This document shows positions 1 through 18,511 of a stretch of 24,000 bases of DNA, piece after piece; the stretch's first letter is position 1; each line of letters begins with the position of its first letter. The notes beneath the pieces were generated by a model that ran no database searches, was not told where the DNA came from, and saw only the letters and a program-made list of their open reading frames with translations. Source of the DNA: Candidatus Hamiltonella defensa 5AT (Acyrthosiphon pisum) (GTDB lineage Bacteria; Pseudomonadota; Gammaproteobacteria; Enterobacterales; Enterobacteriaceae); NCBI RefSeq assembly GCF_000021705.1, contig NC_012751.1, forward strand, positions 722,608-746,607, read 5' to 3'. The translations under genes were made by a program, and so were the position numbers.

Positions 1-655
1 ACAACACGCCAGTTAATAGCATGCCATTCCAGTTGTTGTTCATAGTTTTGATTTATTACGTTTGCCATAGGCATCTAACTCTTCTAAATCAATTCATAAC
101 CTTGGTAAAGGATTATATGGGTAAGTCACCCGTTCCACGTCAGCCTCTTTTCAGAGTAAAGTAATTACCTCTATCAATCCTGTTATGATTTCCAGTTGCC
201 TTTCGGCTGATTGCCTTCGCTTTTTGGAACGTCTTATGCCCACTGTCTCTTAGTATTTACATCAACACTAAAAGATTAATGGGGTTACCGTGTTTCACAC
301 CATGAAGATACATTGAGTGGGCTGCCTCCTCTATGCCGGGGAACGGGATCCGTCGTAAAGAACGAACACTCTTCTTTACCCGTTTCTAACTGTCGTTAAA
401 CTTCCCCATAACACGTCACATCTGATTTCGTGTTTTACTTGCTTACGACATTTTAATAACGGAGATTCACTTTATTCAACCCATTTCAGTTTTGCCTTGC
501 CCCTATTTCTTATTCAGCTTAATACTTTAGTTAGGCTTTCATTCTCGCTTAGCACAAGAGAATTACTCCTCTTGCACCGAGTAAGTGGCAATAAGGTTTC
601 GGATCAACCTTACCCTTTTTCAAGGGACTTCTGTGGTGCAACTTTCACGTCGCAC
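1..655 (-). mobile_element. Group II intron copy A, 5' portion only (rest lies off the left edge of the window). Includes the first 74 nt of the intron-encoded RT ORF (start codon at 74, minus strand).
   Basis: Positions 1-655 read identically to 17857-18511 (copy C). The minus strand starts GTGCGACGTGAAAG at 655, matching the group II 5' consensus GUGCG. The IEP N-terminus MPMANVINQ... starts at 74 by homology with copy C. Confidence 0.9.
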
Positions 656-2143: not shown

Positions 2144-2813
2144 TCAATGAAATAACCGAGCGATGTCTTCCACAGGTAGCCCCGTATATTTTTGGATTTT
2201 TTCTGGACTTTCTCCATCGGCCATCAGCTTTTTGGCGATGGTCAGGGTAGCCTGTTTCAGGCCCTCTTCTTTACCCTGCTGTATCCCCTGTTTTAAACCT
2301 TCTTCTAAGCCTTCCTTTCTCAGCTCTTCTGCTATCGTCATCACATTCTCCCGTTGAGTGGTCGAAGAAAGGGCCTCAAAAAATAACGGGCGAGAGGCCG
2401 TTTCTCCCTCTTGAAAGAGATAATACAACAAACTTTTAAACAGGTCATCGTTTAACGGGAAACGCTTATCCAGACGAATAAGATAAGGCGCGATGTCCAT
2501 CATGTCACGAACTCGGACCAGTTTCTGGACCAGTTCAAGCCAGGCAATCATCCCATGCTTCAGAATGTCTTCTTCGGGAATAACCGTCACATCTACCAAA
2601 GTAAAAGGCTCAGAATCTAATCTCCGCGCGGCTTCTTTGTCATCAAAATAATCGAACCAATCCAGACTGTACGGGTAAGGACTCGTTTCTCCATGGTAGA
2701 ATAACTGGCACGACCACCGGCAAGGTGTCGTTGCCCTGCTCCAGGTGCCGTTGCATGGCTGCCACCGCATACCTCAAAAGCCTAAACGCCATCAGTTTTT
2801 CAGGTTTGCTCTG
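2144..2813 (-). pseudogene. Rpn/YhgA-like PD-(D/E)XK recombination-promoting nuclease (putative transposase), exon 2, with a frameshift near 2699-2705
   Basis: From 2813 the minus strand reads QSKPEKLMAFRLLRYAVAAMQRHLEQGNDTLPVVVPV. The family-typical FYHGETSPYPYSLDWFDYF... then continues in another frame (ORF 2144..2770). The C-terminal repeat-like tail (EEGLKQGIQQGKEEGLKQ) is typical of the family. Confidence 0.85.
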
Positions 2814-5155
2814 ATTAGGTAAGCAGGCCGAAAGTGCCCACTCCCTCAAGAACCGTACGTGCGAGTTACCCCGCATACGGCTCACGCAACTTACTGACTT
2901 CAACATTTTTCCTTTTTTGCTATGTAATTGTCTGTGGCAATTAGCATGTAACAATCTTAAATTAGCTAGCTTGTTATCACCCCCTTCAGCTTTGGGCTGA
3001 ATATTATGAACATGTAATTGTTCACCATTGTCCAGCTCTTGATCACAGAGAGGACAATAACCTTTCTGTCGCTTATAGAGGTTAACTTTGACACCGTAAA
3101 TAAAAGGCTGCTTACGTGCCTGCCTATGACGCCAATAATCACGCAATTCAGGATTATCGGGGGAAGCATTCTTGGTAACTAGCCAATGACGCTGTATTTT
3201 TGTCCATGCATGCTTCCAGAGAAATCCACCGTTTGATTTATCCATAAATACTGAATAGTCTTCTCTACCTGGTATCTTGCCTAAATAGTGTTTTCTTCGC
3301 CACCACCAATGTTTATTGGGATGACGTCGATACAGATATCTACATTGGCGAATCCACATCCATTGGTCTATTGCACTGAATGTCTGTTTTGACGCACCAA
3401 TACGATAGTAATTACACCATCCTATTATTTTTTCATTCAGCTGCATTATGCCTTCTTTTGTCGGCATGCCAATGATCCTTTTCCAGGTCATTCTCATTTG
3501 CTGTCTGTACCTTTTAATCGACTCCTTTGACGGTTTCATTAACAACACATATCCCCGCTTTCTGTGGCGATTTTCATAATGTCGTATATTAAATCCCAAG
3601 AAGTCGAATCCTTCCTTCAGGTGTTTGATACTGGTTTTTTCTTCCGAAAGGGCTAACCCTCTCTGTGCTAACCAACTTCGCAACTTTATTTTAGCTGTTT
3701 CGCATTCTTCACGGGATTTACCTAATACAACAAAATCATCCGCATAGCGCACTACTGCATAAGGTTGGCCTTGTTTTGGCTTGCCATTTTTCCAGTATTG
3801 AATACCCAGCAAGGTTTCCATTCCGTGGAGTGCAATATTGGCCAGTAGTGGACTGATAATCCCTCCTTATGGAGTACCTGCAACACTGGGTATATAGTTG
3901 CCATGTTCCAGCACACCGGCTTGTAGCCATTTTTTAATCATGTTTCTTTCGGGAAATCCCCCGATTGTTTTTATGAGAAAATTATGGTCAATGTTGTCAA
4001 ATGCGCTTTTAATATCTGCATCCAGTACCCAATGCCTTGTCCCCCGTGCCCTGGCAATACAGAAAATTTTTTGTATTGCGTCATGAGCACTTCGTCCTGG
4101 TCTAAATCCGTAACTGACTGGTTCAAATTTTGCTTCCCAATAAGGTTCCAGCGCTGATTTAACTATCGCTTGTTTACATCGTTCGAGAATAGTTGGGATC
4201 CCAAGAGGGCGCTTTTTCCTATTCTTTTTGCTATGTAGACCCGTTTTACTGGATAAATCTTTTCTGAAGTTGTTTGGCTTAATAACTTATAAAGGTGTTC
4301 TCGTCCTTTATGGTCATCAATGACCTGATTATCTACTCCAGCTGTGTGTTTTCCCCGATTGATCTGTGTGACTTTCCTGATAGCCAGAAGATGATTAGCT
4401 CTTGATTTCATCATGAGTTTTTGCAAATTTCTGACTTTCTTTAAGTCACCTGTTGCTGAAGCCCTATATATCCTTTGTCTTAGATTATTAATCATGGTTG
4501 TCACAACACGCCAGTTGATGGCGTGCCATTCCAGTTGTTCATGGTTTTGATTTATTACGTTTGTCATTGACATCTAACTCTTCTAAATCAATTCATAATC
4601 TTAATAAAGGATCCTATGGGTAAGTCACCCGTTCCACGTCAGCCTCTTTTCAGAGTGAGGTAGTTACCTCTATCAATCCTGTTATGATTTCCCGTTCCCT
4701 TTCGGATGATAGCCTTCGCTTCTTGGAACGTCTTATGCCCACTGTCTCTTTCATATTTACATGAACATGAAGAGATTAATGGGGTTACCGTGTTTCACAC
4801 CATGAAGATACATTGAATGGGTTGCCTCCTCTATGCCGGGGAACGGGATCCGTTGTAAAGAACGAACACTCTTCTTTACCCGTTTCTAACTGTCGTTAAA
4901 TTTCCCCTTAACACGTCACATCTGATTTCGTGTTTTCGTTGCTGACGACATTTTAATCACGGAGATTCACTTTATTCAGCCCATTTCAATTTTGCCTAGC
5001 CCCTATTTCTTATTCAGCTTAATACTTTAGTTAGGCTTTCATTCTCGCTTAGAACAAGAGAATTACTCCTCTTGCACCGAGAAAGTGACAATAAGGTTTC
5101 GGATCAACCTTACCCTGATTCAAGGGACTTCTGTGGTGCAACTTTCACGTCGCAC
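2814..5155 (-). mobile_element. Group II intron copy B (2342 nt), full length but diverged, inserted in sense orientation in the rpn-like gene
   Basis: 5' end GTGCGACGTG at 5155 (minus). Domain V GAGCCGTATGCGGGGTAACTCGCACGTACGGTTC lies at 2850-2883. A domain VI helix has a bulged A 7 nt from the 3' end, which reads ...CTTACCTAAT at 2814. Joining the flanking exons gives a conserved Rpn motif. Clearly more diverged from copy C than copy A is, with many substitutions and a 3-nt deletion visible in the stretches I compared. Confidence 0.93.
2895..4573 (-). pseudogene. Degenerate intron-encoded protein of copy B (RT-maturase-HNH endonuclease)
   Basis: Homologous to the copy C IEP, with several lesions. 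Clustered homopolymer indels at about 4205-4232 give a net -1 frameshift. CAA to TAA at 3867-3869 interrupts GTP*GG in RT motif 4. The HNH motif reads HVHNIQ instead of HVHHIQ. The stop codon is lost (TGA to TCA at 2895-2897). Confidence 0.9.
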
Positions 5156-5893: not shown

Positions 5894-7786
5894 TCAGGGA
5901 GTCAAATTCGGAGAATCAAATACAATGGGAGCGGGTTTATCTTGAGACCGCATTTCACAGACCCGTTTCTGCTGAATAGGGTCTGTTAACCTCAAGGCAG
6001 TCTGACCCATTTCATTGAAATCTCGAACCAACGAACACGCTTTCTCAACGTACTCCCGCGGACCCGAGAAAACCCGTTTCTCTCCACTTTTTTGCTCTGC
6101 CAAATGTAACCCCGCCACCATATTGTCCCCCTCGTTTTCAAACGGTCTGGCCATCTCAATGGTTTCCCCTCGGTCAATCATTTGGGTGATTCCTTCCTTT
6201 TTGTATACAATCGCCCCGTCACGGTGGATATGATGGGTATAGCCTTTGAGCTCAACCGGCGCAATATCATCTGAAACGGCACATTCAATGACCGTATCAC
6301 TGAGGTAAGCCGTGCGCTCATCCCGCTTCGCTTGGTAAGCCCACCCTCTTAACTGGCTAATGGCCGCTTTATCCCCTTTTAACGCCTGCTGTTCCACCCA
6401 AACACGATAAGACAGTCGCCTATTTTCTGGAGAACGATACCAGTTCTCCCGCTCTTCCTTTAATTTTAAACGCAACTCGGCCATCGCTTTTTCTCGCTCA
6501 AAAGCCAACACATGATAGGCCAGTTTTCTCATTAAAGGATCGCGCACCGCAACACACACATGGGCTCTTCGGAAACGAAAGGTCATGGAAAGAGTTCTGA
6601 AACGATTTTTTGCGTCAAAAGAAGGGCATTTCGCTTCTTTTTTGTCATGTTGATAACGCAATTTTAACTCTTCTCGGGCCTCAGCACGTTCTAATCGGCG
6701 AGTCATTCGAGCTTGATGATCACGCAAATGAAGTCGATCATCATAATGTGAACTCACCATATAGTTTGTTAAGGTCACCTCCCCTTGTTCATTTTTAAAT
6801 TCCATCACTCGGGGCGCACTTTCAAATTCGCCAAGGCGAGGCACTAATTTCGAAAGAGTGAGTTGAGGATGTAAACTGCTGGCCTTCAAAGGAGTCTGTT
6901 CAGGATGTACGCGATCATAAATAGCCAAACCTCGGTCCTTCTTTTTCAGTTCCAGTCCCGCCCTAATCAAAACAGCATGGAATCGCTCCCAATAGAGGTT
7001 TTTTTCTCCCAGAATCTTTGAAATCTCTTCACGACATTCACGCACCGCATAACCATAAAAGCTTTCCTTATCTGAATAATATTCCAGTTTCTTAGCCTCA
7101 ATAGGCATGGGTTTTTGATGAGAGTACGAACGAACAACCTGATGATGGTCGTTAATCACATAGCACCCATGAGTTCTCGTCCAGCCATACTTTAATTCCA
7201 TTTCTCTACTGGCTTTATGTAATTTAGAAATATCATAGGCATCATCGGCAACTTTATAAGTCACAGGATGGATCCGATTCACGGCAACATGACAATGAAG
7301 GTGATCTGTGTCTCTATGAATGGCCGTGACATACTGATGTTCAGACATCCCTAATGCATCAAGACTATGACGCGCACTTTCAAAAATTTGCTCTACCGTC
7401 GGAGAGTCCGTCTCCGGCCAGGATAAAAAAAAGTGATAAACGGGATCTTTACAACGCGTATTTTTTAAAGCCACCGCTTACATTTCTACCGCCGCTGTGG
7501 CCACGCTCAGTGTATTCGTTTCGCATAAAACCTGATCAAAAAGAACCTGATGCCGACCATCAGGAAATCTCTCAGTGATAAGGCTTTTATCCGCATCTCC
7601 GTTGCGATGAATGTAACCCATTAAGCGTTCAAAAATGGCTTCTTTTGATTGAGATAAACGGGCTTTTTGGCTCTCTGGATCAATCACGTCATCATGATGA
7701 TGGTCATCACGAGTCGTCGTATAGGCCAATAAAGTGAGAAAACTTGATTTTCCATCCCTCCGTTTTTTTGCCTTACCCACAATCAT
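5894..7786 (-). pseudogene. MOBP-type conjugative relaxase (TraI/MobA/VirD2-like, relaxase/mobilisation nuclease domain) with one in-frame TAA at 7478-7480
   Basis: ORFs 7478..7786 and 5894..7474 are in the same frame, separated only by TAA: ...LSVATAAVEM*AVALKNTRCKDPVYHFFLSWPE. The His triad is HRDTDHLHCHVAVNRIHP. Together they encode 630 aa. Confidence 0.85.
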
Positions 7787-8095
7787 TTATTCTGCCCGCC
7801 CTAAGGTTAAAATAGCTTCCTGGATAGCCACGAAAACTTGTGCATATTCTTCGCTTATAACCCCTTTCCCTTCATCAAAAAGACGTTGCTGTAGAGACCC
7901 TAATCGACTCAATTCCATCACTAATTCCGGATCAAAGTGAGTTTTTATTCTGCGATTTAACCCACAGCGAATGAGGTAAGTACTTAAATTCAAACCTGCC
8001 GATTGGGCTTTCTCTTTGAGATGCTCTTTTTCTTCTGGAAAGCAACGAATACTGGGAATAAGGGCCGTTCTTTTTCGTTTTTCACTTTGGCTCAT
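7787..8095 (-). CDS. mobC: MobC-family relaxosome accessory protein
   Basis: 102 aa. IRCFPEEKEHLKEKAQSAGLNLSTYLIRCGLNRRI matches the MobC (bacterial mobilisation protein) pattern. The stop lies directly next to the relaxase ATG at 7786. Confidence 0.7.
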   Translation of the reverse strand: MSQSEKRKRTALIPSIRCFPEEKEHLKEKAQSAGLNLSTYLIRCGLNRRIKTHFDPELVMELSRLGSLQQRLFDEGKGVISEEYAQVFVAIQEAILTLGRAE

Positions 8096-10072: not shown

Positions 10073-10327
10073 ATGAACAAACGACACCAAAAAATACTAT
10101 CAGATGTGTTCGCCCGTCCGGTGAACGGATCGATAAAATGGAAAGATATTGAATCTCTTTTCATCGCTCTTGGTGCAGAAGTTCACGAAAGAGAAGGCTC
10201 GAGGATTGCCGTATTGCTAAAAAAACAAAAAAAAATCTTTCATAGACCCCACCCAAAACCAACTACTGACAAAGGGGCAGTTAATTCCATTCGGGTGTGG
10301 CTAGATAGCTTAGGAATCAGACCATGA
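10073..10327 (+). CDS. hicA: HicA-family type II toxin (mRNA interferase)
   Basis: 84 aa. ILSDVFARPVNGSIKWKDIESLFIALGAEVHEREGSRIAVLL...IFHRPHPKPTTDKGAVNSIRVWLDSLG fits the HicA pattern (GS...H.PHP). It overlaps the next gene by 4 nt. Confidence 0.8.
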   Translation: MNKRHQKILSDVFARPVNGSIKWKDIESLFIALGAEVHEREGSRIAVLLKKQKKIFHRPHPKPTTDKGAVNSIRVWLDSLGIRP

Positions 10328-10665
10328 ACAATACACTTAAAATTGAGGGCCATGTTGCCGTCATCAACTTTGACCCTGAGATCGAAATGTTTCGCGGTGA
10401 GTTTATCGGCCTCAATGGAGGGGCTGATTTTTACGCTTACAGCGTGGAAGAATTAAAAAAAGAGGGCACAAAATCACTGGCGATTTTTTTTGATGAATGC
10501 TCTAAAGATGGGGTAAATCCTTACAAAACCTTTAAAGGTAAGGTAACCACCCGATTGACCCCTGAGCGACATAAAGCACTTACTGTGACAGCGCAGGCGC
10601 AAGGGGTTTCAATCAATGAACTACTGAATGAAGGGGTTGATTTGGTTATTCAAAAACACGCTTAA
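10324..10665 (+). CDS. hicB: HicB-family antitoxin with C-terminal RHH
   Basis: 113 aa. INFDPEIEMFRGEFIGLNGGADFYAYSVEELKKEGTKSLAIFFDECSKDGVNPYKTFKGKVTTRLTPERHKALTVTAQAQGVSINELL is the classical HicB layout. Confidence 0.85.
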   Translation: MNNTLKIEGHVAVINFDPEIEMFRGEFIGLNGGADFYAYSVEELKKEGTKSLAIFFDECSKDGVNPYKTFKGKVTTRLTPERHKALTVTAQAQGVSINELLNEGVDLVIQKHA

Positions 10666-10715: not shown

Positions 10716-11279
10716 TCATTGATTGCCTTTAGCAGCCTCGATATATTTATACAGCGTCGGCTTTGAAATCCCCATCATTTCGCAAATCTGATAAACCGTA
10801 TGCTTTTTATCATCGTACAGCTTCACCGACAGAGCTTGTTTATCTTGACTCAAGGCTTTGGGTCTCCCTCCGTGCCGACCTCGAGCACGAGCCGCTTTGA
10901 GGCCCGCCTGAGTTCTTTCTCTGATAAGGTTTCGCTCAAATTCTGCCAAAGCCCCGAAGAGATGAAAAATGAGCTTACCAGAGCTCGATGAAGTATCGAT
11001 GGCTTCCTGAAGACTTTTTAGACCAATCTCTTTTGATCCCAAAAGAGTCACGATGTCAATCAAATCTTTGAGCGAACGGCTGAAGCGATCTAAACGCCAG
11101 ACGACGATAGTATCGCCAGAGCGGGCATAATCTAAAATATTTTGCAAACCAGGGCGTTCTGATTTCGCTCCGCTGAAACGGTCTTCGAAGATTTTTTCGC
11201 ATCCAGCCAGATTGAGTGCATCGAGTTGTAAATGTAAATTTTGATCGTCTGTAGACACTCTCGCATAGCCGAGTAGCAC
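10716..11279 (-). CDS. Serine recombinase (resolvase/invertase family)
   Basis: 187 aa. The catalytic-Ser N-terminus reads MLLGYARVSTDDQNLHLQLDAL. VVWRLDRFSRSL and GALAEFERNLIRERTQAGL are also present. The C-terminal HTH is YQICEMMGISKPTLYKYI. Confidence 0.9.
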   Translation of the reverse strand: MLLGYARVSTDDQNLHLQLDALNLAGCEKIFEDRFSGAKSERPGLQNILDYARSGDTIVVWRLDRFSRSLKDLIDIVTLLGSKEIGLKSLQEAIDTSSSSGKLIFHLFGALAEFERNLIRERTQAGLKAARARGRHGGRPKALSQDKQALSVKLYDDKKHTVYQICEMMGISKPTLYKYIEAAKGNQ

Positions 11280-11355: not shown

Positions 11356-11482
11356 GAACCGTTTAATACAGTAAGGAAAATTCTATGAGCGTTTTAGGGG
11401 GGTAGTAGAGGAATTTTAGAGAATTTATACGGCAAAAATTTTCTTTTTTTCGAGTGAAGATTTCGGGTTCACGGAGAGCGTT

Positions 11483-12493
11483 ATGAATGAGTTGATTTTA
11501 TGTGATGCTGTAACAACAATCGGCCATGTAAAAAACGAAACGAAATCACCGAACAATCCTGCACTGAGTTATTTGTTACGGTTGAGATCGAAGAAGAGCC
11601 AAAAAACGATGCGTTCCTGTCTGACTAGCGTTTCTTCGATGTTCGGGTGCAACGAACCGTTGCATTTTGACTGGTCCTCGCTGACGAGGGATATGATACA
11701 GGTGGTTCTCCAACGGCTACTGAACGAACACAAAGCCCCAAATACCATTAACCTCATTCTCTGTGCTATTAAAGGGGTTGCCGAAGAAGCCAGAGCGTCA
11801 CGACTGATGGATGCAGACAATTACCATGATGTAAAAAACATAAAGAGAATTAGGGGCGCACGGATAAGTCGGGGTAGAATGCTGGAATGTGCTGAAATTA
11901 AACAGCTTTTTACTTTTTTGGATATTCAGACTACGGGAGCTGCGATACGGGATGCTGCGCTCATATCGCTCATGTTCGGCTGTGGGTTGAGGCGTTCAGA
12001 AGTGGCTGACCTCGATATAGACCATATTGATTTTGAAAATAACAAAATCGACATACACGGGAAAGGCAACAAGGAGCGGATCAACTATATGCCGCCTGAA
12101 ACGGCTAAGCGAATGTGTCTGTGGGTAGACTCGGTGAGGGGCGATCATAGTGGACCACTATTTACTCGGATCAGAAAAAACGATGATGTAACCAGTGACA
12201 GGCTTACCACAAACGGAATTGGCTTTATTATTAAACAACTCGTTACAAAACTGTCACTTAAATCATTCACACCGCATGATTTACGGCGCTCCTACGCTTC
12301 ATTACTACTGGAAAATGGCGAAGATATACTGACAGTGAAAGAAGCTCTGGGTCATGCCAGCGTGGTAACGACTCAACAATACGACAAACGGAGTATCAAG
12401 CGTTTAGAGGCTGCTGCGCTAAACTTTTCATTTGGAAAAAAACATGAGAGAGATAAGGTTGTGGACGGCATCAGAACATACGAAACGGTTTAA
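11483..12493 (+). CDS. Tyrosine recombinase/integrase (XerC/D-like phage integrase family)
   Basis: 336 aa with a GGAGAG SD 5 nt upstream. Catalytic signature: GLRRSEVADL (Arg), HDLRRSYAS (HxxR), ALGHASVVTTQQY (His...Tyr). Confidence 0.9.
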   Translation: MNELILCDAVTTIGHVKNETKSPNNPALSYLLRLRSKKSQKTMRSCLTSVSSMFGCNEPLHFDWSSLTRDMIQVVLQRLLNEHKAPNTINLILCAIKGVAEEARASRLMDADNYHDVKNIKRIRGARISRGRMLECAEIKQLFTFLDIQTTGAAIRDAALISLMFGCGLRRSEVADLDIDHIDFENNKIDIHGKGNKERINYMPPETAKRMCLWVDSVRGDHSGPLFTRIRKNDDVTSDRLTTNGIGFIIKQLVTKLSLKSFTPHDLRRSYASLLLENGEDILTVKEALGHASVVTTQQYDKRSIKRLEAAALNFSFGKKHERDKVVDGIRTYETV

Positions 12494-12583
12494 CACCCTG
12501 AAAGCACCGTTTTTTGTCGAAAAAATAGCAAGTTACACGGAAGCGCCTAGTGTGGGACGTTTATCAGATCATCGTCAATCCAG

Positions 12584-12627
12584 CGCTGATAGTGTCCCCA
12601 TTAAAATTTAAGTGGACACTATCAGCG
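12584..12627. repeat. Perfect 14-bp inverted repeat with a 16-nt AT-rich spacer at the backbone/cargo junction
   Basis: CGCTGATAGTGTCC (12584-12597) and GGACACTATCAGCG (12614-12627) are exact reverse complements. The spacer is ccattaaaatttaagt. Confidence 0.8.
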
Positions 12628-12830
12628 GTGACAGACACCCTACGCCCTACAACATGGCGCTTAAGTATATCTGGCTGGTAAGTTTAACTGAAAATAAATC
12701 TGAAAAACAAAGAGTTATTGAAATGTCGCTGTTTTTTGATAAACCAACCCACACCAAAAGAAACCTGATTAAGCACGGATGGCAAGTGGACGGTCACAAT
12801 TTGATTTCCCCTGAGTGGTGGAGTGAATAA
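12612..12830 (+). CDS. Doubtful small ORF (72 aa with GTG start inside the inverted repeat; internal ATGs at 12654 and 12723)
   Basis: The support is only an open frame that ends 2 nt before the next gene's ATG. There is no recognisable motif and the start is unclear. Confidence 0.2.
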   Translation: MDTISGDRHPTPYNMALKYIWLVSLTENKSEKQRVIEMSLFFDKPTHTKRNLIKHGWQVDGHNLISPEWWSE

Positions 12831-12831
12831 C

Positions 12832-13266
12832 ATGAAAGTTTTGAAAATGTATTTTTTATTATTTGTTTTTTCGTATGGGGCGTTTTGGTCTATCCCAACC
12901 GCGAGAGTCATTTCCCGTCAGATATTCTATATTGCGCTGATATTATACTGTGTGGGTACGATTTTTCATGTGCCTATTTTTGAGTTTATGGCGAAAAGCA
13001 CCACACTGGTTCTGGCTTTTGTGCCTCCAATTTGTTGCTATTCCTACTTCATGCTGCCAATTAAGCGCGAGATCCCGAATATCATTCGAGCCTCTACACA
13101 TGAGGATGCGAGGAATTTTTCACTGACGCTGGAGAATAATGGAAAAATCAGAACGCTTAATCTAATCCACCTAAAGCCTGTGATATTAACTTTTTTCATC
13201 AAATATATTGAATATATTGTTGACTACGCAAAACATAGAAATCTAATCATTAAGGGCGAAGATTAA
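12832..13266 (+). CDS. Hypothetical membrane protein (about 3 hydrophobic segments plus a ~65-aa soluble C-terminus); first gene of the cargo operon
   Basis: ATG at 12832 is preceded by GGAG (ggtggagtgaataacATG). Hydrophobic stretches are MYFLLFVFSYGAFW, IFYIALILYCVGTIF and LVLAFVPPICCYSYFML. ORF track 12823..13266. Confidence 0.6.
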   Translation: MKVLKMYFLLFVFSYGAFWSIPTARVISRQIFYIALILYCVGTIFHVPIFEFMAKSTTLVLAFVPPICCYSYFMLPIKREIPNIIRASTHEDARNFSLTLENNGKIRTLNLIHLKPVILTFFIKYIEYIVDYAKHRNLIIKGED

Positions 13267-13313
13267 GCGGTAAACCGCCAGAAAACAAAAAACTATTCGG
13301 TACTATCGTATGA

Positions 13314-14069
13314 TTGAATCATCAACTGAAAAATATTCTCATGTATGTGCTTGCCGTTGCGGTGATCCTATTTGAAATGAGGCGTTACCTGAAAAAAAAG
13401 AAAATACATTTTTTTTCTATCGCACTATTAGTTTGCATGGCAGTTGTAAGCATCGTTAAATCATTCTTTCTTGATTTTTACATTGTGCCGACAGCCTCAA
13501 TGTCTCCAACCATCCATTCGGGCGATTTAACGCTCTCCTTACCCTACAAAGACCGCCGTGACAAGCTATACAGGGGAGATGTGGTGATATTTCATCCTTC
13601 TGCGTTTCCTAGCTTTATTTATGTTAAACGCATCGTTGGAGTTGCGGGGGATACCGTTTCTTTTAATACGAACAAAGAAATACTGGTTAACAGAAAACCC
13701 GTTAGAATTGAAAAAGAAAAAAACAATTTCAATATAATATACGAAGGAATACAAGATCGTGACGGTAAAACATATCAATATATGACCGACAGGAATAAAC
13801 CGTTTATTGAGCCTATATACACCACTTGGCACGTTCCAGACGGGTATGTTTTTGTCATGGGAGACAACAGAGATAATTCTTGGGATTCTCGCTATTGGGA
13901 AAATCCAGTGGGTACACCGAAAGAATTGAGGGGCTTATTGCCGACAAAAAACATTATCAGTCGCTACATGGAAACCGCGATTAACATCCCATTTTTTAAA
14001 GAGGATTTTGATTTTGGACGCTTGGGATTAAATATAATGGGTGATGCTCAAAAAAAAGGAGAGAAGTAA
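13314..14069 (+). CDS. Signal peptidase I (S26 family, LepB/TraF-like) with an N-terminal TM anchor (TTG 13314 or ATG 13341 start)
   Basis: All the S26 boxes are present: catalytic Ser in PTASMSPTI, then GDVVIF, catalytic Lys in YVKRIVGVAGDTV, and GDNRDNSWDSRYW. Confidence 0.85.
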   Translation: MNHQLKNILMYVLAVAVILFEMRRYLKKKKIHFFSIALLVCMAVVSIVKSFFLDFYIVPTASMSPTIHSGDLTLSLPYKDRRDKLYRGDVVIFHPSAFPSFIYVKRIVGVAGDTVSFNTNKEILVNRKPVRIEKEKNNFNIIYEGIQDRDGKTYQYMTDRNKPFIEPIYTTWHVPDGYVFVMGDNRDNSWDSRYWENPVGTPKELRGLLPTKNIISRYMETAINIPFFKEDFDFGRLGLNIMGDAQKKGEK

Positions 14070-14071
14070 CA

Positions 14072-14665
14072 ATGATTTCATTAACCTTTAAAACCAGTAA
14101 TAAAAATCTGGTGGAAAGGTATAAAGACGCTCTGAACGTCTATGACGACTGGAAAACCAATACAAAAATATCATGTGTTGGGGCTGGGTTTGGTAAATTT
14201 ATGGGGATTGATTTAATGATCCCAATATTCTTTTTTCGCTCACAATCACTGGGTATTGTGAATGTAAATGATTTTGTGGAAATTTCCAAAGTCGGTTCAA
14301 TCATGTCTTTTACAGAACAGGGTAAACATTCAGACTTCTACCAAAAACTCTCAGAATATAGTCAGTCCGCCTTACATTCGATGAAAGTAAAAGACACTTA
14401 CGGGAACAAGGAAAATCACTCGTTCAGCCATGCCGTGACATACACCTTAGATGCGTTTTCGATAGCGAAGCACATTGGCATCGAAACGCATAGTCAGGCG
14501 TGGTTGGTGGAAGACGAACTTATTCTTATTTATCCAACTCTGATTTTTGATAATGACATAAATTACAAAAAGTTAGATGAAAATGACTGGTGGGAGATAA
14601 AAGCGAGCGAGTTTAAAAAGCTCTACATGAAGGGATTATTGAGTGAAGTTAGGCATCCGATCTAA
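14072..14665 (+). CDS. Hypothetical protein (197 aa), no family recognised
   Basis: ATG lies 2 nt after the peptidase stop, with an AAAGGAGAG SD. The protein looks mostly soluble with one hydrophobic patch (GIDLMIPIFFF) and a His-rich stretch (ENHSFSHAVTYTLDAFSIAKHIGIETH). Confidence 0.6.
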   Translation: MISLTFKTSNKNLVERYKDALNVYDDWKTNTKISCVGAGFGKFMGIDLMIPIFFFRSQSLGIVNVNDFVEISKVGSIMSFTEQGKHSDFYQKLSEYSQSALHSMKVKDTYGNKENHSFSHAVTYTLDAFSIAKHIGIETHSQAWLVEDELILIYPTLIFDNDINYKKLDENDWWEIKASEFKKLYMKGLLSEVRHPI

Positions 14666-15011
14666 TTTAACGGTTATATGCGGTGTTGTTTGTCTGTTGT
14701 TAACGGGCTGCGGGGCAAACACAAATACCCGCAATACCGAATTGGCTTACGCGAACAGCAAATATCAGGATTTTACTGGATTCAGTAAAAAAAGTGATGA
14801 ATTGTTGATAGTGAGAAACGAACTGAACCTAGATAACCAAAAAATAAAAGACTTTTATTTTTTGGATGGGAGTCAGGAAACTATAATGAAAGTAAGCCTT
14901 TCAACTATGCCGTGTTCCATGCTGCTGAAAAAGCATAATACATCATCGGGTCTTATGTGGTCCGTATTTGACATGAGTTGCGATGAAAACGAAGGTGATT
15001 ATGCCAATTGA
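14643..15011 (+). CDS. Small lipoprotein (122 aa)
   Basis: The signal peptide ends in a lipobox: VICGVVCLLLTG|C. It has a GTG start overlapping the preceding gene by 23 nt. Confidence 0.65.
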   Translation: MKLGIRSNLTVICGVVCLLLTGCGANTNTRNTELAYANSKYQDFTGFSKKSDELLIVRNELNLDNQKIKDFYFLDGSQETIMKVSLSTMPCSMLLKKHNTSSGLMWSVFDMSCDENEGDYAN

Positions 15012-15267
15012 ACACTTAATCACCAGCACGGTATTGTTCACCGCATTATCCGCAACAGCAATGTGAAAACTGCTTTTCATAGGATATTCACTCACCTATT
15101 TGCTAGCAAAAACATACAGTAAAGTCGCTTCTGCGGATATGAGGACTGTGCTAGGAACGGAATATATTCAATACATGAACGGGCAACAAATAATCACCAA
15201 TGAAGGCATACATGTGATCGATGCGAGTGCTAGGTTGACTTTTCAAACACTGACGTTCATGCAATAA
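15001..15267 (+). pseudogene. Small two-TM membrane ORF (88 codons) interrupted by an in-frame TGA at 15064-15066
   Basis: From ATG 15001 the frame reads MPIEHLITSTVLFTALSATAM*KLLFIGYSLTYLLAKTYSKVASADMRTVLG...TFMQ*, all in one frame. It overlaps the lipoprotein stop and ends 14 nt before the next gene. It is not in the ORF track because each half is under 60 aa. Confidence 0.4.
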
Positions 15268-15281
15268 AATCAAGGTAAAAA

Positions 15282-16175
15282 ATGAAAAGAAGACGTTACA
15301 GGAAGAAAACACCGCCACTGAATATACATCTGTTTCTGTGTGCTCTTTATATCGCGGGTGCTGTTTTCATGGATTTTCACTTTATCGTTTTATTGATTGG
15401 ATTGGTGATCCCTTACTTGGGGGTGATAACCCTATCCCCGTATGCGAAAGTCGTTCGGCTTTACAAAAAAGGGAACCCTGAGTGGGCGACAATCAACGTT
15501 AAAATAAAATCTCCTTTTTTAAATCCGTATATGACGATACCTATTATTATCATTACGATATTAGCAATATTTTTTATGGGCTATGACTATGTTTTTGCAC
15601 GGCTTATAGTTCATTACGGTGTTTTTGAGGTTAGAGATGCACTGGCGATATTTCGTAGTGAAAACATCATTAATACCTACTTCAACCGCGATCACATAAA
15701 TGCCTATGGCTATTTTATAGTAGGCTTGATTCACGCCATCACGCTATATCTGATCGCCCTCTATGCAACAACCTCCCTGTACCGATATAAGCAACAAACC
15801 ATGTTCACTGGCGTTATTAGGCAAGCCACGCAAAGCAAAGAAACTTTGGAGTTTATCCGAACGCTCTCTTGGCGTGAGTTTGAGGAATTTGTCAGGGAGT
15901 TGTTCAAAAGCAAAGGGTTTGAAGCCCAAACGACAAAGTACGGTCTAGACAACGTGAAAGATATTATCCTGCAAAAGGACGGCATGAAAGCCATTGCACA
16001 ATGTAAACACTGGAAAACAGAACAGGTTGGAATCGCAGTGGCAAGGGAAATGATTGGCGTATTGGAAGCAGATAAAGAAGCCACTCACGTTTTTTTAGTG
16101 ACTTCGGGATCGTTCTCGAATGACGCTATTCTATTCAGGAAACAAGTCGCTGACAGGCTCACGTTGATTAGGTAA
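15282..16175 (+). pseudogene. 4-TM membrane-anchored Mrr-like (Mrr_cat, PD-(D/E)XK) restriction-endonuclease-domain protein, C-terminus replaced by antisense intron copy C after codon 295
   Basis: Four N-terminal hydrophobic helices are present. The C-terminal domain reads LSWREFEEFVRELFKSKGFEAQTT..GLDNVKDIIL..AIAQCKHWK...VGIAVAREMIGVL...VFLVTSGSFSNDAILF, matching the Mrr_cat pattern (D...QxK). The last two codons and the stop (IR*) come from intron sequence starting at 16167. Confidence 0.75.
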
Positions 16176-18511
16176 GCAGGCCGCAAGTGCCCACTCCCTC
16201 AAGAACCGTACGTGCGAGTTACCCCGCATACGGCTCACGCAACTTACTCACTTCAACATTTTTCCTTTTTTGCTATGTAATTGTCTGTGGCAATTAGCAT
16301 GTAACAATCTTAGATTAGCCAGCTTGTTGTCACCCCCTTCAGCTTTAGGCTGAATATGATGAACATGCAATTGTTCACCATTGTCCAACTCTTGATCACA
16401 GAGAGGACAATAACCTTTCTGTCGCTTATAGAGGTTAACTTTGACACCGTAAATAAAAGGCTGTTTACGTGCCTGCCTATTACGCCAATAGTCACGCAAT
16501 TCCGGATTGTCGGGGGAAGCATTTTTTGGAACTAGCCAATGACGCTGTATTTTTGTCCATGCATGCTTCCAAAGAAATCCACCGGTTGATTTATCCATAA
16601 ATACTGAATAGTCTTCTCTACCTGGTATCTTGCCTAAGTAGTGTTTTCTTCGCCACCACCAGTGTTTATTGGGATGACGTCGATACAAATATCTACGTTG
16701 GCGGATCCACATCCATTGGTCTAATGCACTGAATGTTCTTTTTGAAGCACCAATACGATAGTAATTACACCATCCTATTATCTTGGCATTCAGTTGTCTT
16801 ATTCCTTCTTGTGTCGGCATACCGATAATACCTTTCCAGGTCATTCTCATTTGCTGTTTGTACCTTTTCATCGACTCCTTTGAGGGCTTCGTTAACAATA
16901 TATATCCCCGTTTTCTGTGGCGATTGTCATAATGTCGTATATTAAATCCCAGGAAGTCGAATCCTTCCTTCAAGTGTTTGATACTGGTTTTTTCTTCAGA
17001 AAGAGCTAACCCTCTCTAAGCTAACCAAATTTGCAACTTTATTTTGGCAGTTTCGCACTCTTCACGGGATTTACCGAATACGACAAAATCATCCGCATAA
17101 CGAACTACTGCATAAGGTTGCCCTTGTTTTGGCGTGCCGTTTTTCCAGTATTGAATACCCAGTAAGGTCTCCATTCCGTGGAGTGCAATATTGGCCAGTA
17201 GTGGACTGATAATCCCGCCTTGCGGAGTACCTGCAACATTGGGTATATAGTTGCCATGTTCCAGCACACCGGCTTGTAACCATTGTTTAATCATGTTTCT
17301 TTCGGGGAATCCCCCGATTTTTTTTATGAGAAAATTATGGTCAATGTTGTCAAATGCGCCTTTAATATCTGCATCTAGTACCCAGTGCCGTGTCCCTCGT
17401 GCTCTGGCAATACAGAAAATTTTTTGTATTGCGTCATGGGCACTTCGCCCCGGTCTAAATCCGTAGCTGACTGGTTCAAATTTTGCTTCCCAATAAGGTT
17501 CCAGCGCCGATTTAACTATCGCTTGTCTACAGCGGTCGAGAATGGTTGGGATCCCAAGAGGGCGTTTTTTTCCATTCTTTTTTGCTATGTAAACTCGTTT
17601 TACTGGATAAACCTTTTCTGAAGTTGTTTGGCTTAATAACTTATAAAGATGTTCTCGTCCTTTATGGTCATTAATTACCTGATTATCTACTCCAGCCGTG
17701 TGTTTTCCCCGATTGACCTGAGTGACTTTCCTGATAGCCAGAAGATGGTTAGCTCTTGATTTCATCATGAGTTTTTGCAGATTTCTGACTTTCTTTAAGT
17801 CACCTGTTGCTGAAGCCCTATATATTCTTTGCCTTAGATTATTAATCATGGCTGTCACAACACGCCAGTTAATAGCATGCCATTCCAGTTGTTGTTCATA
17901 GTTTTGATTTATTACGTTTGCCATAGGCATCTAACTCTTCTAAATCAATTCATAACCTTGGTAAAGGATTATATGGGTAAGTCACCCGTTCCACGTCAGC
18001 CTCTTTTCAGAGTAAAGTAATTACCTCTATCAATCCTGTTATGATTTCCAGTTGCCTTTCGGCTGATTGCCTTCGCTTTTTGGAACGTCTTATGCCCACT
18101 GTCTCTTAGTATTTACATCAACACTAAAAGATTAATGGGGTTACCGTGTTTCACACCATGAAGATACATTGAGTGGGCTGCCTCCTCTATGCCGGGGAAC
18201 GGGATCCGTCGTAAAGAACGAACACTCTTCTTTACCCGTTTCTAACTGTCGTTAAACTTCCCCATAACACGTCACATCTGATTTCGTGTTTTACTTGCTT
18301 ACGACATTTTAATAACGGAGATTCACTTTATTCAACCCATTTCAGTTTTGCCTTGCCCCTATTTCTTATTCAGCTTAATACTTTAGTTAGGCTTTCATTC
18401 TCGCTTAGCACAAGAGAATTACTCCTCTTGCACCGAGTAAGTGGCAATAAGGTTTCGGATCAACCTTACCCTTTTTCAAGGGACTTCTGTGGTGCAACTT
18501 TCACGTCGCAC
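16167..18511 (-). mobile_element. Group II intron copy C (2345 nt), full length
   Basis: 5' GTGCGACGTG at 18511 (minus). Domain V lies at 16203-16236. Domain VI has a bulged A, and the 3' end reads ...CCTAAT at 16167. The IEP sits in domain IV. The 5' 655 nt are identical to copy A. Confidence 0.93.
16248..17930 (-). pseudogene. Intron-encoded RT-maturase-HNH endonuclease of copy C, intact except for one in-frame TAG at 17016-17018
   Basis: ORFs 17016..17930 and 16248..16973 share one frame. RT motifs are RPLGIPTILDR, GTPQGGIISPLLANI and VVRYADDFVV. The X domain contains GWCNYYRIGASK. The En domain reads CPLCDQ...HVHHIQPKAEGGDNKLANLRLLHANCHRQLH. Copy B has CAG (Q) where C has TAG (LAQRGLAL versus LA*RGLAL). 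Confidence 0.9.

Follow-up and report, generated by a model that had tools for sequence, protein, structure and literature searches.

The closest described relative of the locus considered here is orf184-orf192 of the IncT plasmid Rts1, which forms the start of a 60.8-kb conjugation-related region and belongs to a plasmid from which every gene has been deleted (Murata, Gotoh and Hayashi, DNA Res 2024; PMC10838148). Our locus is a block of six same-strand open reading frames (ORFs), named G1 to G6 below, at positions 12832-16175 of a 24,000-nucleotide (nt) stretch of the Candidatus Hamiltonella defensa 5AT chromosome (NC_012751.1, positions 722,608 to 746,607, forward strand). This whole stretch is "the window," and coordinates are those of the window unless another locus is named. 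A preliminary description, made from the DNA letters alone, had taken the block for mobile-element cargo and a candidate defence-like system, in which an envelope module controls a nuclease. We consider instead, with a probability of about 0.78, that the block is a decayed fragment of an Rts1-type (MOBH12/MPF_F) conjugation accessory operon, orf184-orf192, brought in on a mosaic plasmid of the Arsenophonus type. Judged by sequence comparison, it is plasmid backbone, rather than cargo or a self-contained six-gene unit, and it can be counted as a new, if fragmentary, member of a conjugation accessory operon that is known and was recently characterized.

The Rts1 figures (Table 1 and Supplementary Table S1 of PMC10838148) come from E. 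coli-to-E. coli matings in which the mutants served as donors only, and we transferred the Rts1 ORF numbers to the IncT locus through the published deletion primers, which match it exactly. Relative conjugation was 0.00097 after deletion of orf185, which encodes a LepB-like peptidase, and <0.0001 after deletion of orf186, a defect that was complemented. The corresponding values were 0.056 for orf191, 0.018 for orf192, and 0.00065 for both together. For orf184 the value was 0.45, for orf187 0.35, and for orf188-190 (which includes the membrane Mrr nuclease) 0.38; orf187 and orf188-190 are thus dispensable for conjugation in this assay, and the data show that, in laboratory matings of E. coli, a donor requires neither the lipoprotein nor the nuclease. 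The mutants lacking orf185, orf186, or orf191 were also unable to mobilize a CloDF13 derivative, so these three genes act in mating-pair formation. Rts1 needs two peptidases, the LepB-like Orf185 and the TraF-family TrhF (PMC10838148).

The six ORFs of the Hamiltonella block are tightly packed, with spacings from G1 to G6 of +47, +2, -23, -11, and +14 nt (from the ORF listing and by direct reading). They are as follows.

12832-13266, plus strand: G1, a small polytopic membrane protein with hydrophobic segments, positional counterpart of Rts1 Orf184
13314-14069, plus strand: G2, a LepB-type S26 signal peptidase I, homologue of Rts1 Orf185
14072-14665, plus strand: G3, a soluble protein of 197 amino acids (aa), homologue of Rts1 Orf186
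14643-15011, plus strand: G4, a small lipoprotein (lipobox VVCLLLTG↓C), homologue of Rts1 Orf187
15001-15267, plus strand: G5, a pseudogene of a secreted SGNH/GDSL (DUF459) esterase, with an in-frame TGA at 15064-15066
15282-16175, plus strand: G6, a protein with four transmembrane (TM) segments and a C-terminal Mrr_cat PD-(D/E)xK domain, homologue of Rts1 Orf189

G2 is a complete enzyme with two TM segments. It matches Pfam Peptidase_S26 (PF10502) at 2e-35 and TIGR02227 at 114.5 bits (cut-off 47), and its active-site boxes can be read directly from the translation (Ser62 in ASMSPT, Lys105 in YVKR, and the GDNRDNSWDSRYW box). With Rts1 Orf185 it shares 37% identity (E 2.8e-47, using the Rts1-identical locus L007). 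The true start of G2 may be the ATG at 13342. A pilin peptidase of the TraF/TrhF type was considered for G2 and rejected, given scores of 27.2 bits against 100.25 for TIGR02771 and 14.2 against 156 for NF010459.

G3 matches Orf186 in a BLASTP comparison (E 3.5e-11). A profile built from the Arsenophonus and Xenorhabdus G3 proteins and run against 1.84 billion representatives returned only six proteins, half of which are Orf186-family members of 211-214 aa (whole-library E 9.5e-12 to 1.2e-6); no other family was hit. The nine-sequence alignment of Orf186 and G3 proteins is collinear end to end, with 18 invariant columns. The family is extremely narrow, amounting to about six clusters at 50% identity among those 1.84 billion proteins. 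G3 has no hydrophobic segment and so probably acts from the cytoplasm. Neither G1 nor G3 has a match in Pfam, NCBIfam, PADLOC, or PHROGs; G1 is 65% identical to its Xenorhabdus copy.

For G4, the lipobox cysteine is kept in the Xenorhabdus, pPrY2001, and IncT homologues, and comparison with the Orf187 group gives an hhalign probability of 95% (E 3.4e-8) and common PC...W...GC motifs. Family searches with G4 returned insignificant matches only (KorB_C 0.14, LptM 0.34, phrog_902 0.0026). G5 consists of the two ends of an esterase that is intact, at 192 aa, in Xenorhabdus and in pPrY2001-like plasmids: G5 residues 1-53 correspond to the same positions of the Xenorhabdus protein, and G5 residues 36-88 to its positions 140-192. 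The intact esterase has a signal peptide and matches DUF459 (2.6e-22) and Lipase_GDSL_2 (1.6e-11). The lesions in G5 are an internal deletion of ~104 codons, the in-frame TGA, and a change of GDS to GYS, and the Arsenophonus nasoniae copy carries the same lesions. The esterase is not covered by the Rts1 deletions because IncT plasmids have none.

G6 matches Mrr_cat (PF04471) at 7e-20 (71.7 bits, gathering score 21) and is 30% identical to Rts1 Orf189 (E 8e-33), with which it shares the architecture of four TM segments followed by Mrr_cat. The four hydrophobic segments occupy residues 1-170, and together with the K/R-rich N-terminus they predict a cytoplasmic Mrr_cat domain. A word-indexed search with the N-terminal TM half gave two close relatives only. 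The last 14 codons of G6 are replaced by an arginine codon and a stop at an intron junction, and the intact A. nasoniae allele encodes 310 aa. Residues E201, D223, D227, Q240, and K242 are invariant in nine lineages at overall identities of 23-70%, from which it follows that purifying selection on the active site is strong and that the nuclease does something for the plasmid. We read this as an active, DNA-binding nuclease that selection would maintain in the plasmid clade. The D...D...QxK signature is that of E. coli Mrr and the Type IV restriction enzymes, although G6 differs from these in having four TM helices in place of an Mrr_N-type domain (Mrr_N, the DNA-recognition domain, is absent from the Pfam output for G6) and in being encoded within a tra region. 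We know of no restriction phenotype for a membrane nuclease of the G6 type. A nuclease that is conserved in a transfer region and dispensable for conjugation has a precedent in Nuc of pKM101/R46, a periplasmic member of the phospholipase D (PLD) family. G6 resembles Nuc as a plasmid nuclease among tra genes that is not needed for transfer, and differs from it as an inner-membrane-anchored PD-(D/E)xK protein with a predicted cytoplasmic catalytic domain.

Six of the nine lineages carry a Zn_ribbon_Top1 domain at the C-terminus of the nuclease. It is present in the IncT, pKOX, Citrobacter, and PROV162 versions and was lost in the lineage of pPrY2001, Xenorhabdus, Arsenophonus, and Hamiltonella. 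The genes with this domain, in the coordinates of each relative locus, are:

L007, 7872-8945
L006, 7980-9002
L008, 8893-9972
L009, 9260-10330
L011, 10426-11502
L012, 10485-11561

Much of what the preliminary description had said of the individual genes was borne out. This holds for the six same-strand genes and their spacings, the complete S26 peptidase, the 197-aa protein without a recognizable family, the small lipoprotein (LLTG↓C), and the four-TM protein with a C-terminal Mrr_cat domain. It holds as well for the truncation of the nuclease by an antisense intron (14 codons short, with RF00029 on the minus strand) and for the decay of the module (the G5 lesions and the clipping of G6). The fifth ORF does contain the TGA that had been pointed out, but it is not the small two-TM protein proposed, because it has no TM-grade hydrophobic segment and its sequence is an N- plus C-terminal esterase remnant. 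It had also been suggested, as an alternative, that the block is a remnant of conjugation functions, with a TraF-like pilin peptidase and a TrbK-like exclusion lipoprotein. The gist of that suggestion survives, with the corrections that the peptidase is of the LepB type and that nothing shows the lipoprotein to be TrbK-like. Finally, matches of the unassigned proteins to type IV secretion system (T4SS), pilin, or exclusion components had been named as an outcome that would speak against a defence system; since G2 and G3 are homologous to Orf185 and Orf186, both required for mating-pair formation, such matches were found for two genes.

Set against Rts1, the block shows the same components in the same order (small TM protein, LepB-like S26 peptidase, Orf186-family protein, lipoprotein, four-TM Mrr_cat nuclease), with sequence homology for four of the five genes held in common. 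The differences are substantial. Identity is only 22-37%; Rts1 has a 125-aa TM protein where the window has the SGNH esterase pseudogene; the window nuclease lacks the Zn_ribbon_Top1 tail; and the window lacks the ParB-like gene, homologues of orf191 and orf192, traA, and the T4SS. In addition, TelA-like genes precede the operon in Rts1, whereas a tyrosine recombinase gene does so in the window. Signal-peptidase-family enzymes encoded by or recruited for conjugation are also known from R27 (IncHI1), which has TrhP, and from RP4, in which TrbC is processed by LepB and TraF (as cited in PMC10838148). Orf185 is 25% identical to TrhP over 47% coverage (PMC10838148). G2 differs from the enzymes of these systems in being a full LepB-type peptidase and not a TraF/TrhF-type cyclase, and its substrate is putative.

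The arrangement is found again in MOBH/MPF_F plasmids of eight or more lineages: a small TM protein, the S26 peptidase, Orf186-like protein, lipoprotein, a TM protein or SGNH esterase, TM-Mrr nuclease, Orf191-like protein (anchored, ~300-470 aa), and Orf192-like protein (~190-240 aa). We found it in pArsFIN8 (A. nasoniae), a plasmid of Xenorhabdus TH1, the IncT plasmid p18001477_Rst, the pKOX-type plasmid pMH15-269M_2, Citrobacter p26019-2, Providencia pPROV162-1, and three metagenomic contigs. The pPrY2001-like plasmids of E. coli and Providencia have the same order minus the Orf186-like gene. Wherever the flanking sequence suffices, the cluster lies beside a pilin gene (traA or TrbC-family), and in annotated plasmids a dsbC-like thioredoxin/DsbA gene and mobH are also nearby, where annotated. 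In most plasmids the distance to traA, the dsbC-like gene, and the mobH relaxase gene is a few kilobases, and traA and the dsbC-like gene are near the cluster in A. nasoniae and most annotated relatives. By tblastn, 221 plasmids contain the peptidase and 254 the nuclease, and the counts by genus are nearly equal (for example, peptidase/nuclease: Providencia 62/61; Citrobacter 65/58; Klebsiella 19/19; Escherichia 13/13; Moellerella 10/10). The co-localization of S26 peptidase and TM-Mrr nuclease elsewhere, which the preliminary description had suggested searching for, is thus real, but the cluster is backbone and not the cargo that it had envisaged.

The conserved unit runs two genes further downstream than G6, and one lineage adds an upstream gene for a 336-aa protein. 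Both the Orf191- and the Orf192-like gene occur in A. nasoniae and Xenorhabdus, and likewise in the other relatives whose downstream flank is long enough; in the window, where plasmid homology ends at 16168, they are absent, as are traA, dsbC, and mobH. Because the orf191/192-like genes and traA are missing, the window holds a fragment and not a complete member of the operon. The Orf192-like protein has no match in Pfam, NCBIfam, PADLOC, or PHROGs, and Orf191-like proteins have only sub-threshold NCBIfam matches (GltJ, VirB9), far below cut-off. In the Orf191 family (L007, 10024-11256), the C-terminal domain shows a weak match to the VirB9 N-terminal region (E 3e-4, 20.5 bits against 217.7). 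In the IncT, pKOX, and Citrobacter relatives, PLD-family genes are neighbours of traA.

Among intact versions, the layout closest to that of the window is found in the pPrY2001-like blaNDM-1 plasmids of Proteus and Providencia (for example, NC_022589; backbone in PMC6737455). It reads int, (DUF4365), 336-aa protein, TM protein, lepB, lipoprotein, SGNH esterase, and TM-Mrr (without the Zn ribbon), then two further genes, uvrD, traA, dsbC, and mobH. The peptidase and nuclease are 45-48% identical to the window copies. These plasmids differ from the window in lacking an Orf186/G3 gene and in having intact esterase and 336-aa genes. The genes of the cluster are not mentioned in the published description of the pPrY2001 backbone (PMC6737455), and a literature search on Hamiltonella mobile elements turned up nothing relevant.

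The window proteins themselves are those of H. defensa: exact matches are ACQ67474 (G2), ACQ67475 (G3), and ACQ67476 (G6) of strain 5AT and ATW22192/WP_044612266 (G4), the adjacent ndk is ACQ67477, and ispG is likewise a Hamiltonella gene. From just upstream of the recombinase gene to the intron junction (11362-16168), identity between the window and a plasmid scaffold of A. nasoniae is 98.7%, and 12500-16168 matches four complete A. nasoniae plasmids at 99%. The 4.8-kb stretch common to the 5AT chromosome and the A. nasoniae plasmids (L001 / NZ_CP038620) indicates, at this level of identity, a recent horizontal exchange between two different insect symbionts, Hamiltonella and Arsenophonus.

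By analogy with Rts1, a role for the intact operon can be proposed. G2/Orf185 and G3/Orf186 act on the donor side in assembling the mating apparatus, as shown for Rts1 and presumably, by homology, for the plasmid from which the window copies came. The peptidase would remove the N-terminal leader of an exported T4SS component, most likely the TraA propilin, which carries a type I signal-peptidase site at the end of its leader (AYA↓NGTEQ in Rts1 and AYG↓KGTEQ in the pPrY2001 and Arsenophonus types). A dedicated peptidase would free pilus biogenesis from the host LepB, and G3 may be its obligatory cytoplasmic partner. The lipoprotein (G4/Orf187), the periplasmic SGNH esterase (G5), and the inner-membrane nuclease (G6/Orf189) would be conserved passengers of the operon. 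In Hamiltonella, the operon is probably an inert remnant, because the esterase, the C-terminus of the nuclease, the orf191/192-like genes, traA, and the T4SS have been lost from the window.

Several observations weigh against this interpretation or limit its reach. What is known of function was measured on a homologue of 22-37% identity, and only as donor in E. coli-to-E. coli matings. Homology between G1 and the Orf184 group is not detectable (hhalign probability 0.6%), and the two have in common a similar size, TM segments, and position. The predicted structures of G3 are of low confidence (predicted local distance difference test scores, pLDDT, of 33 and 48). The authors of the Rts1 study leave the substrate of Orf185 unassigned and allow for "some other proteins" (PMC10838148). 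In the pPrY2001-like plasmids (L005/L004), the lipoprotein gene follows lepB with no Orf186/G3 homologue in between, and these plasmids are nevertheless typed as conjugative; the requirement for Orf186 seen in Rts1 is therefore not universal and may be lineage-specific. As for the remnant in Hamiltonella, it may have kept some function, since G2 and G3 are intact and the codon changes in G1-G6 between the Hamiltonella and Arsenophonus copies are mostly synonymous (16 synonymous, 8 non-synonymous).

The defence system of the preliminary description, a self-contained cargo unit whose peptidase, lipoprotein, and membrane proteins would detect or process a signal at the envelope and govern the Mrr effector, could draw on the tight packing of the genes on one strand, on the joint occurrence of S26 peptidase and TM-Mrr across many plasmids, and on the inactivating lesions. 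It is largely refuted already by the Rts1 deletions, in which the peptidase and Orf186 phenotypes are independent of the nuclease (0.38 without orf188-190, whereas deletion of orf185 or orf186 lowers conjugation at least 1000-fold). Moreover, the cluster is backbone beside traA and mobH and not an accessory island, the same G5 lesions occur in the plasmids of the cultivable A. nasoniae, and PADLOC finds no system. In PADLOC-DB v2, five of the six block proteins have no match at all, and the contact of the block with defence models is through the Mrr domain. We regard this explanation as scarcely tenable. The preliminary description had also raised a peptidase-substrate pair of the SipW-TasA type. 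Here the S26 peptidase would mature a secreted protein encoded in the operon, for instance the SGNH esterase or the Orf191-like protein, and would serve a purpose unrelated to DNA transfer. The esterase does have a signal peptide and the Orf191-like protein an N-terminal anchor. The lipoprotein is not a suitable partner and counts against such a pair, given that lipoproteins are cut by signal peptidase II and not by an S26 enzyme. Although the Rts1 authors allow "some other proteins" as substrates (PMC10838148), IncT and pKOX plasmids keep the peptidase without the esterase, and whatever Orf185 cleaves must serve mating-pair formation, since loss of orf185 also blocks mobilization of an unrelated plasmid. 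On balance, a pair of this kind is very improbable.

More can be said for a reading that is compatible with G2 and G3 as mating-pair-formation genes and concerns the rest of the block. The membrane Mrr nuclease, possibly together with lipoprotein and SGNH esterase, could be a non-transfer module inside the tra operon that protects the plasmid-bearing cell at its envelope. It could cut DNA that enters through the conjugation apparatus or near it, for instance that of pilus-specific phages or competitor plasmids, or it could work as a Type IV-like restriction enzyme. The nuclease is kept in every lineage examined with its E, D, D, and QxK residues invariant, most versions carry the DNA-binding Zn_ribbon_Top1, and, because it is dispensable for Rts1 donor function, selection must act on something else. 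The Rts1 mutants were assayed as donors, and the main text of that study makes no mention of exclusion, phage resistance, or native hosts (PMC10838148). The Mrr domain matches the PADLOC models ZorD (3.4e-8), PDC-S02 (5.5e-8), and mREase_IV (2.9e-5), but these matches are confined to the generic catalytic domain, and the other five proteins match no defence model. The typical Mrr N-terminal DNA-recognition domain is absent, and all nuclease homologues among those seen lie inside conjugation regions. We therefore think such a module unlikely. A narrower proposal, that the Orf189-family nuclease is a T4SS-associated DNA barrier that cleaves foreign DNA at the membrane (for instance, incoming pilus-dependent phage genomes or competitor plasmids), with the lipoprotein (and, in one lineage, the esterase) as envelope accessories, is more doubtful still; if it is true, a tra region would harbour a defence or exclusion function with a new architecture.

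With the block assigned to the Rts1-type conjugation operon, an apparent defence system becomes an explained fragment of plasmid backbone whose key genes have a conjugation phenotype in Rts1, and four "hypothetical" genes of Hamiltonella and Arsenophonus are now linked to experimentally characterized Rts1 ORFs. The comparison also identifies near-identical plasmid DNA common to two unrelated insect symbionts, and it draws attention to a membrane nuclease conserved in a plasmid clade of clinical importance (IncT and the pPrY2001-like NDM-1 carriers).

The right edge of the block is set by a group II intron:

~16170-18511, minus strand: group II intron, with RF00029 at 16167-16238 (60.6 bits against 40) and the 5' end, GUGCG, at 18511

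Its reverse transcriptase (RT)/maturase frame is split into ORFs at 17016-17930 (304 aa) and 16248-16973 (241 aa). Three copies of one group II intron are present in the window (1-655, ~2800-5060, and 16170-18511), all on the minus strand and 94-100% identical to one another. Two of the copies are full, and in each the RT/maturase frame is interrupted. At the right-hand copy, plasmid DNA (the Mrr gene) on one side meets chromosomal DNA upstream of ndk on the other; the left-hand copy borders on a plasmid gene at 656. The window ceases to resemble the A. nasoniae plasmid at 16168, and the resemblance is not resumed past the intron; the ndk region follows directly. This arrangement suggests that the intron copies were recombination substrates for integration or deletion, and with three of them in the window, recombination between copies is the likely cause of the loss of the downstream part of the operon. 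An ORF at 497-1564 starts inside intron sequence and is without a Pfam match. For the ProQ-like protein, looked up to follow the sequence leftwards beyond the window, there was no record.

The GC content is 0.389 in the block, 0.443 in the mob genes, 0.471 at positions 658-2800, and 0.364 in the chromosomal flank, so the block is indeed more AT-rich than the transfer genes, as had been noted. The mobilization genes in the window encode a MobA/VirD2-type relaxase and NikA (5894-8095), not the MobH type that accompanies the operon elsewhere, and there are no mating-pair-formation genes within the window. Two features lie just before G1:

11483..12493, plus strand: tyrosine recombinase (Pfam Phage_integrase, 7.7e-30), which travels with the block in the pPrY2001/Xenorhabdus/Arsenophonus lineage
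12432..12830, plus strand: pseudogene of a 336-aa protein, N- and C-terminal remnants (ORFs 12432-12611 and 12612-12830)

The recombinase gene is directly upstream of the operon in five relative loci as well (L002, L003, L004, L005, and L010). Its 3' end is frameshifted in the window by a 1-bp deletion at ~12435 relative to A. nasoniae, which gives an altered C-terminus and a length of 336 aa as compared with 321 aa. The two remnant ORFs match the first ~35 and the last ~35 residues of the proteins encoded at 11157-12167 of L003 and 4881-5891 of L005; the gene is intact in Xenorhabdus TH1 and in the pPrY2001-like plasmids, where it lies between the integrase gene and the operon. The 336-aa protein has three "...AP.WW..." repeats and no family assignment. 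Just to the left of the integrase gene are a HicA/HicB-like toxin-antitoxin pair and a serine resolvase/invertase (10073-10665, 10716-11279), and in the A. nasoniae plasmid the corresponding place is taken by VapBC.

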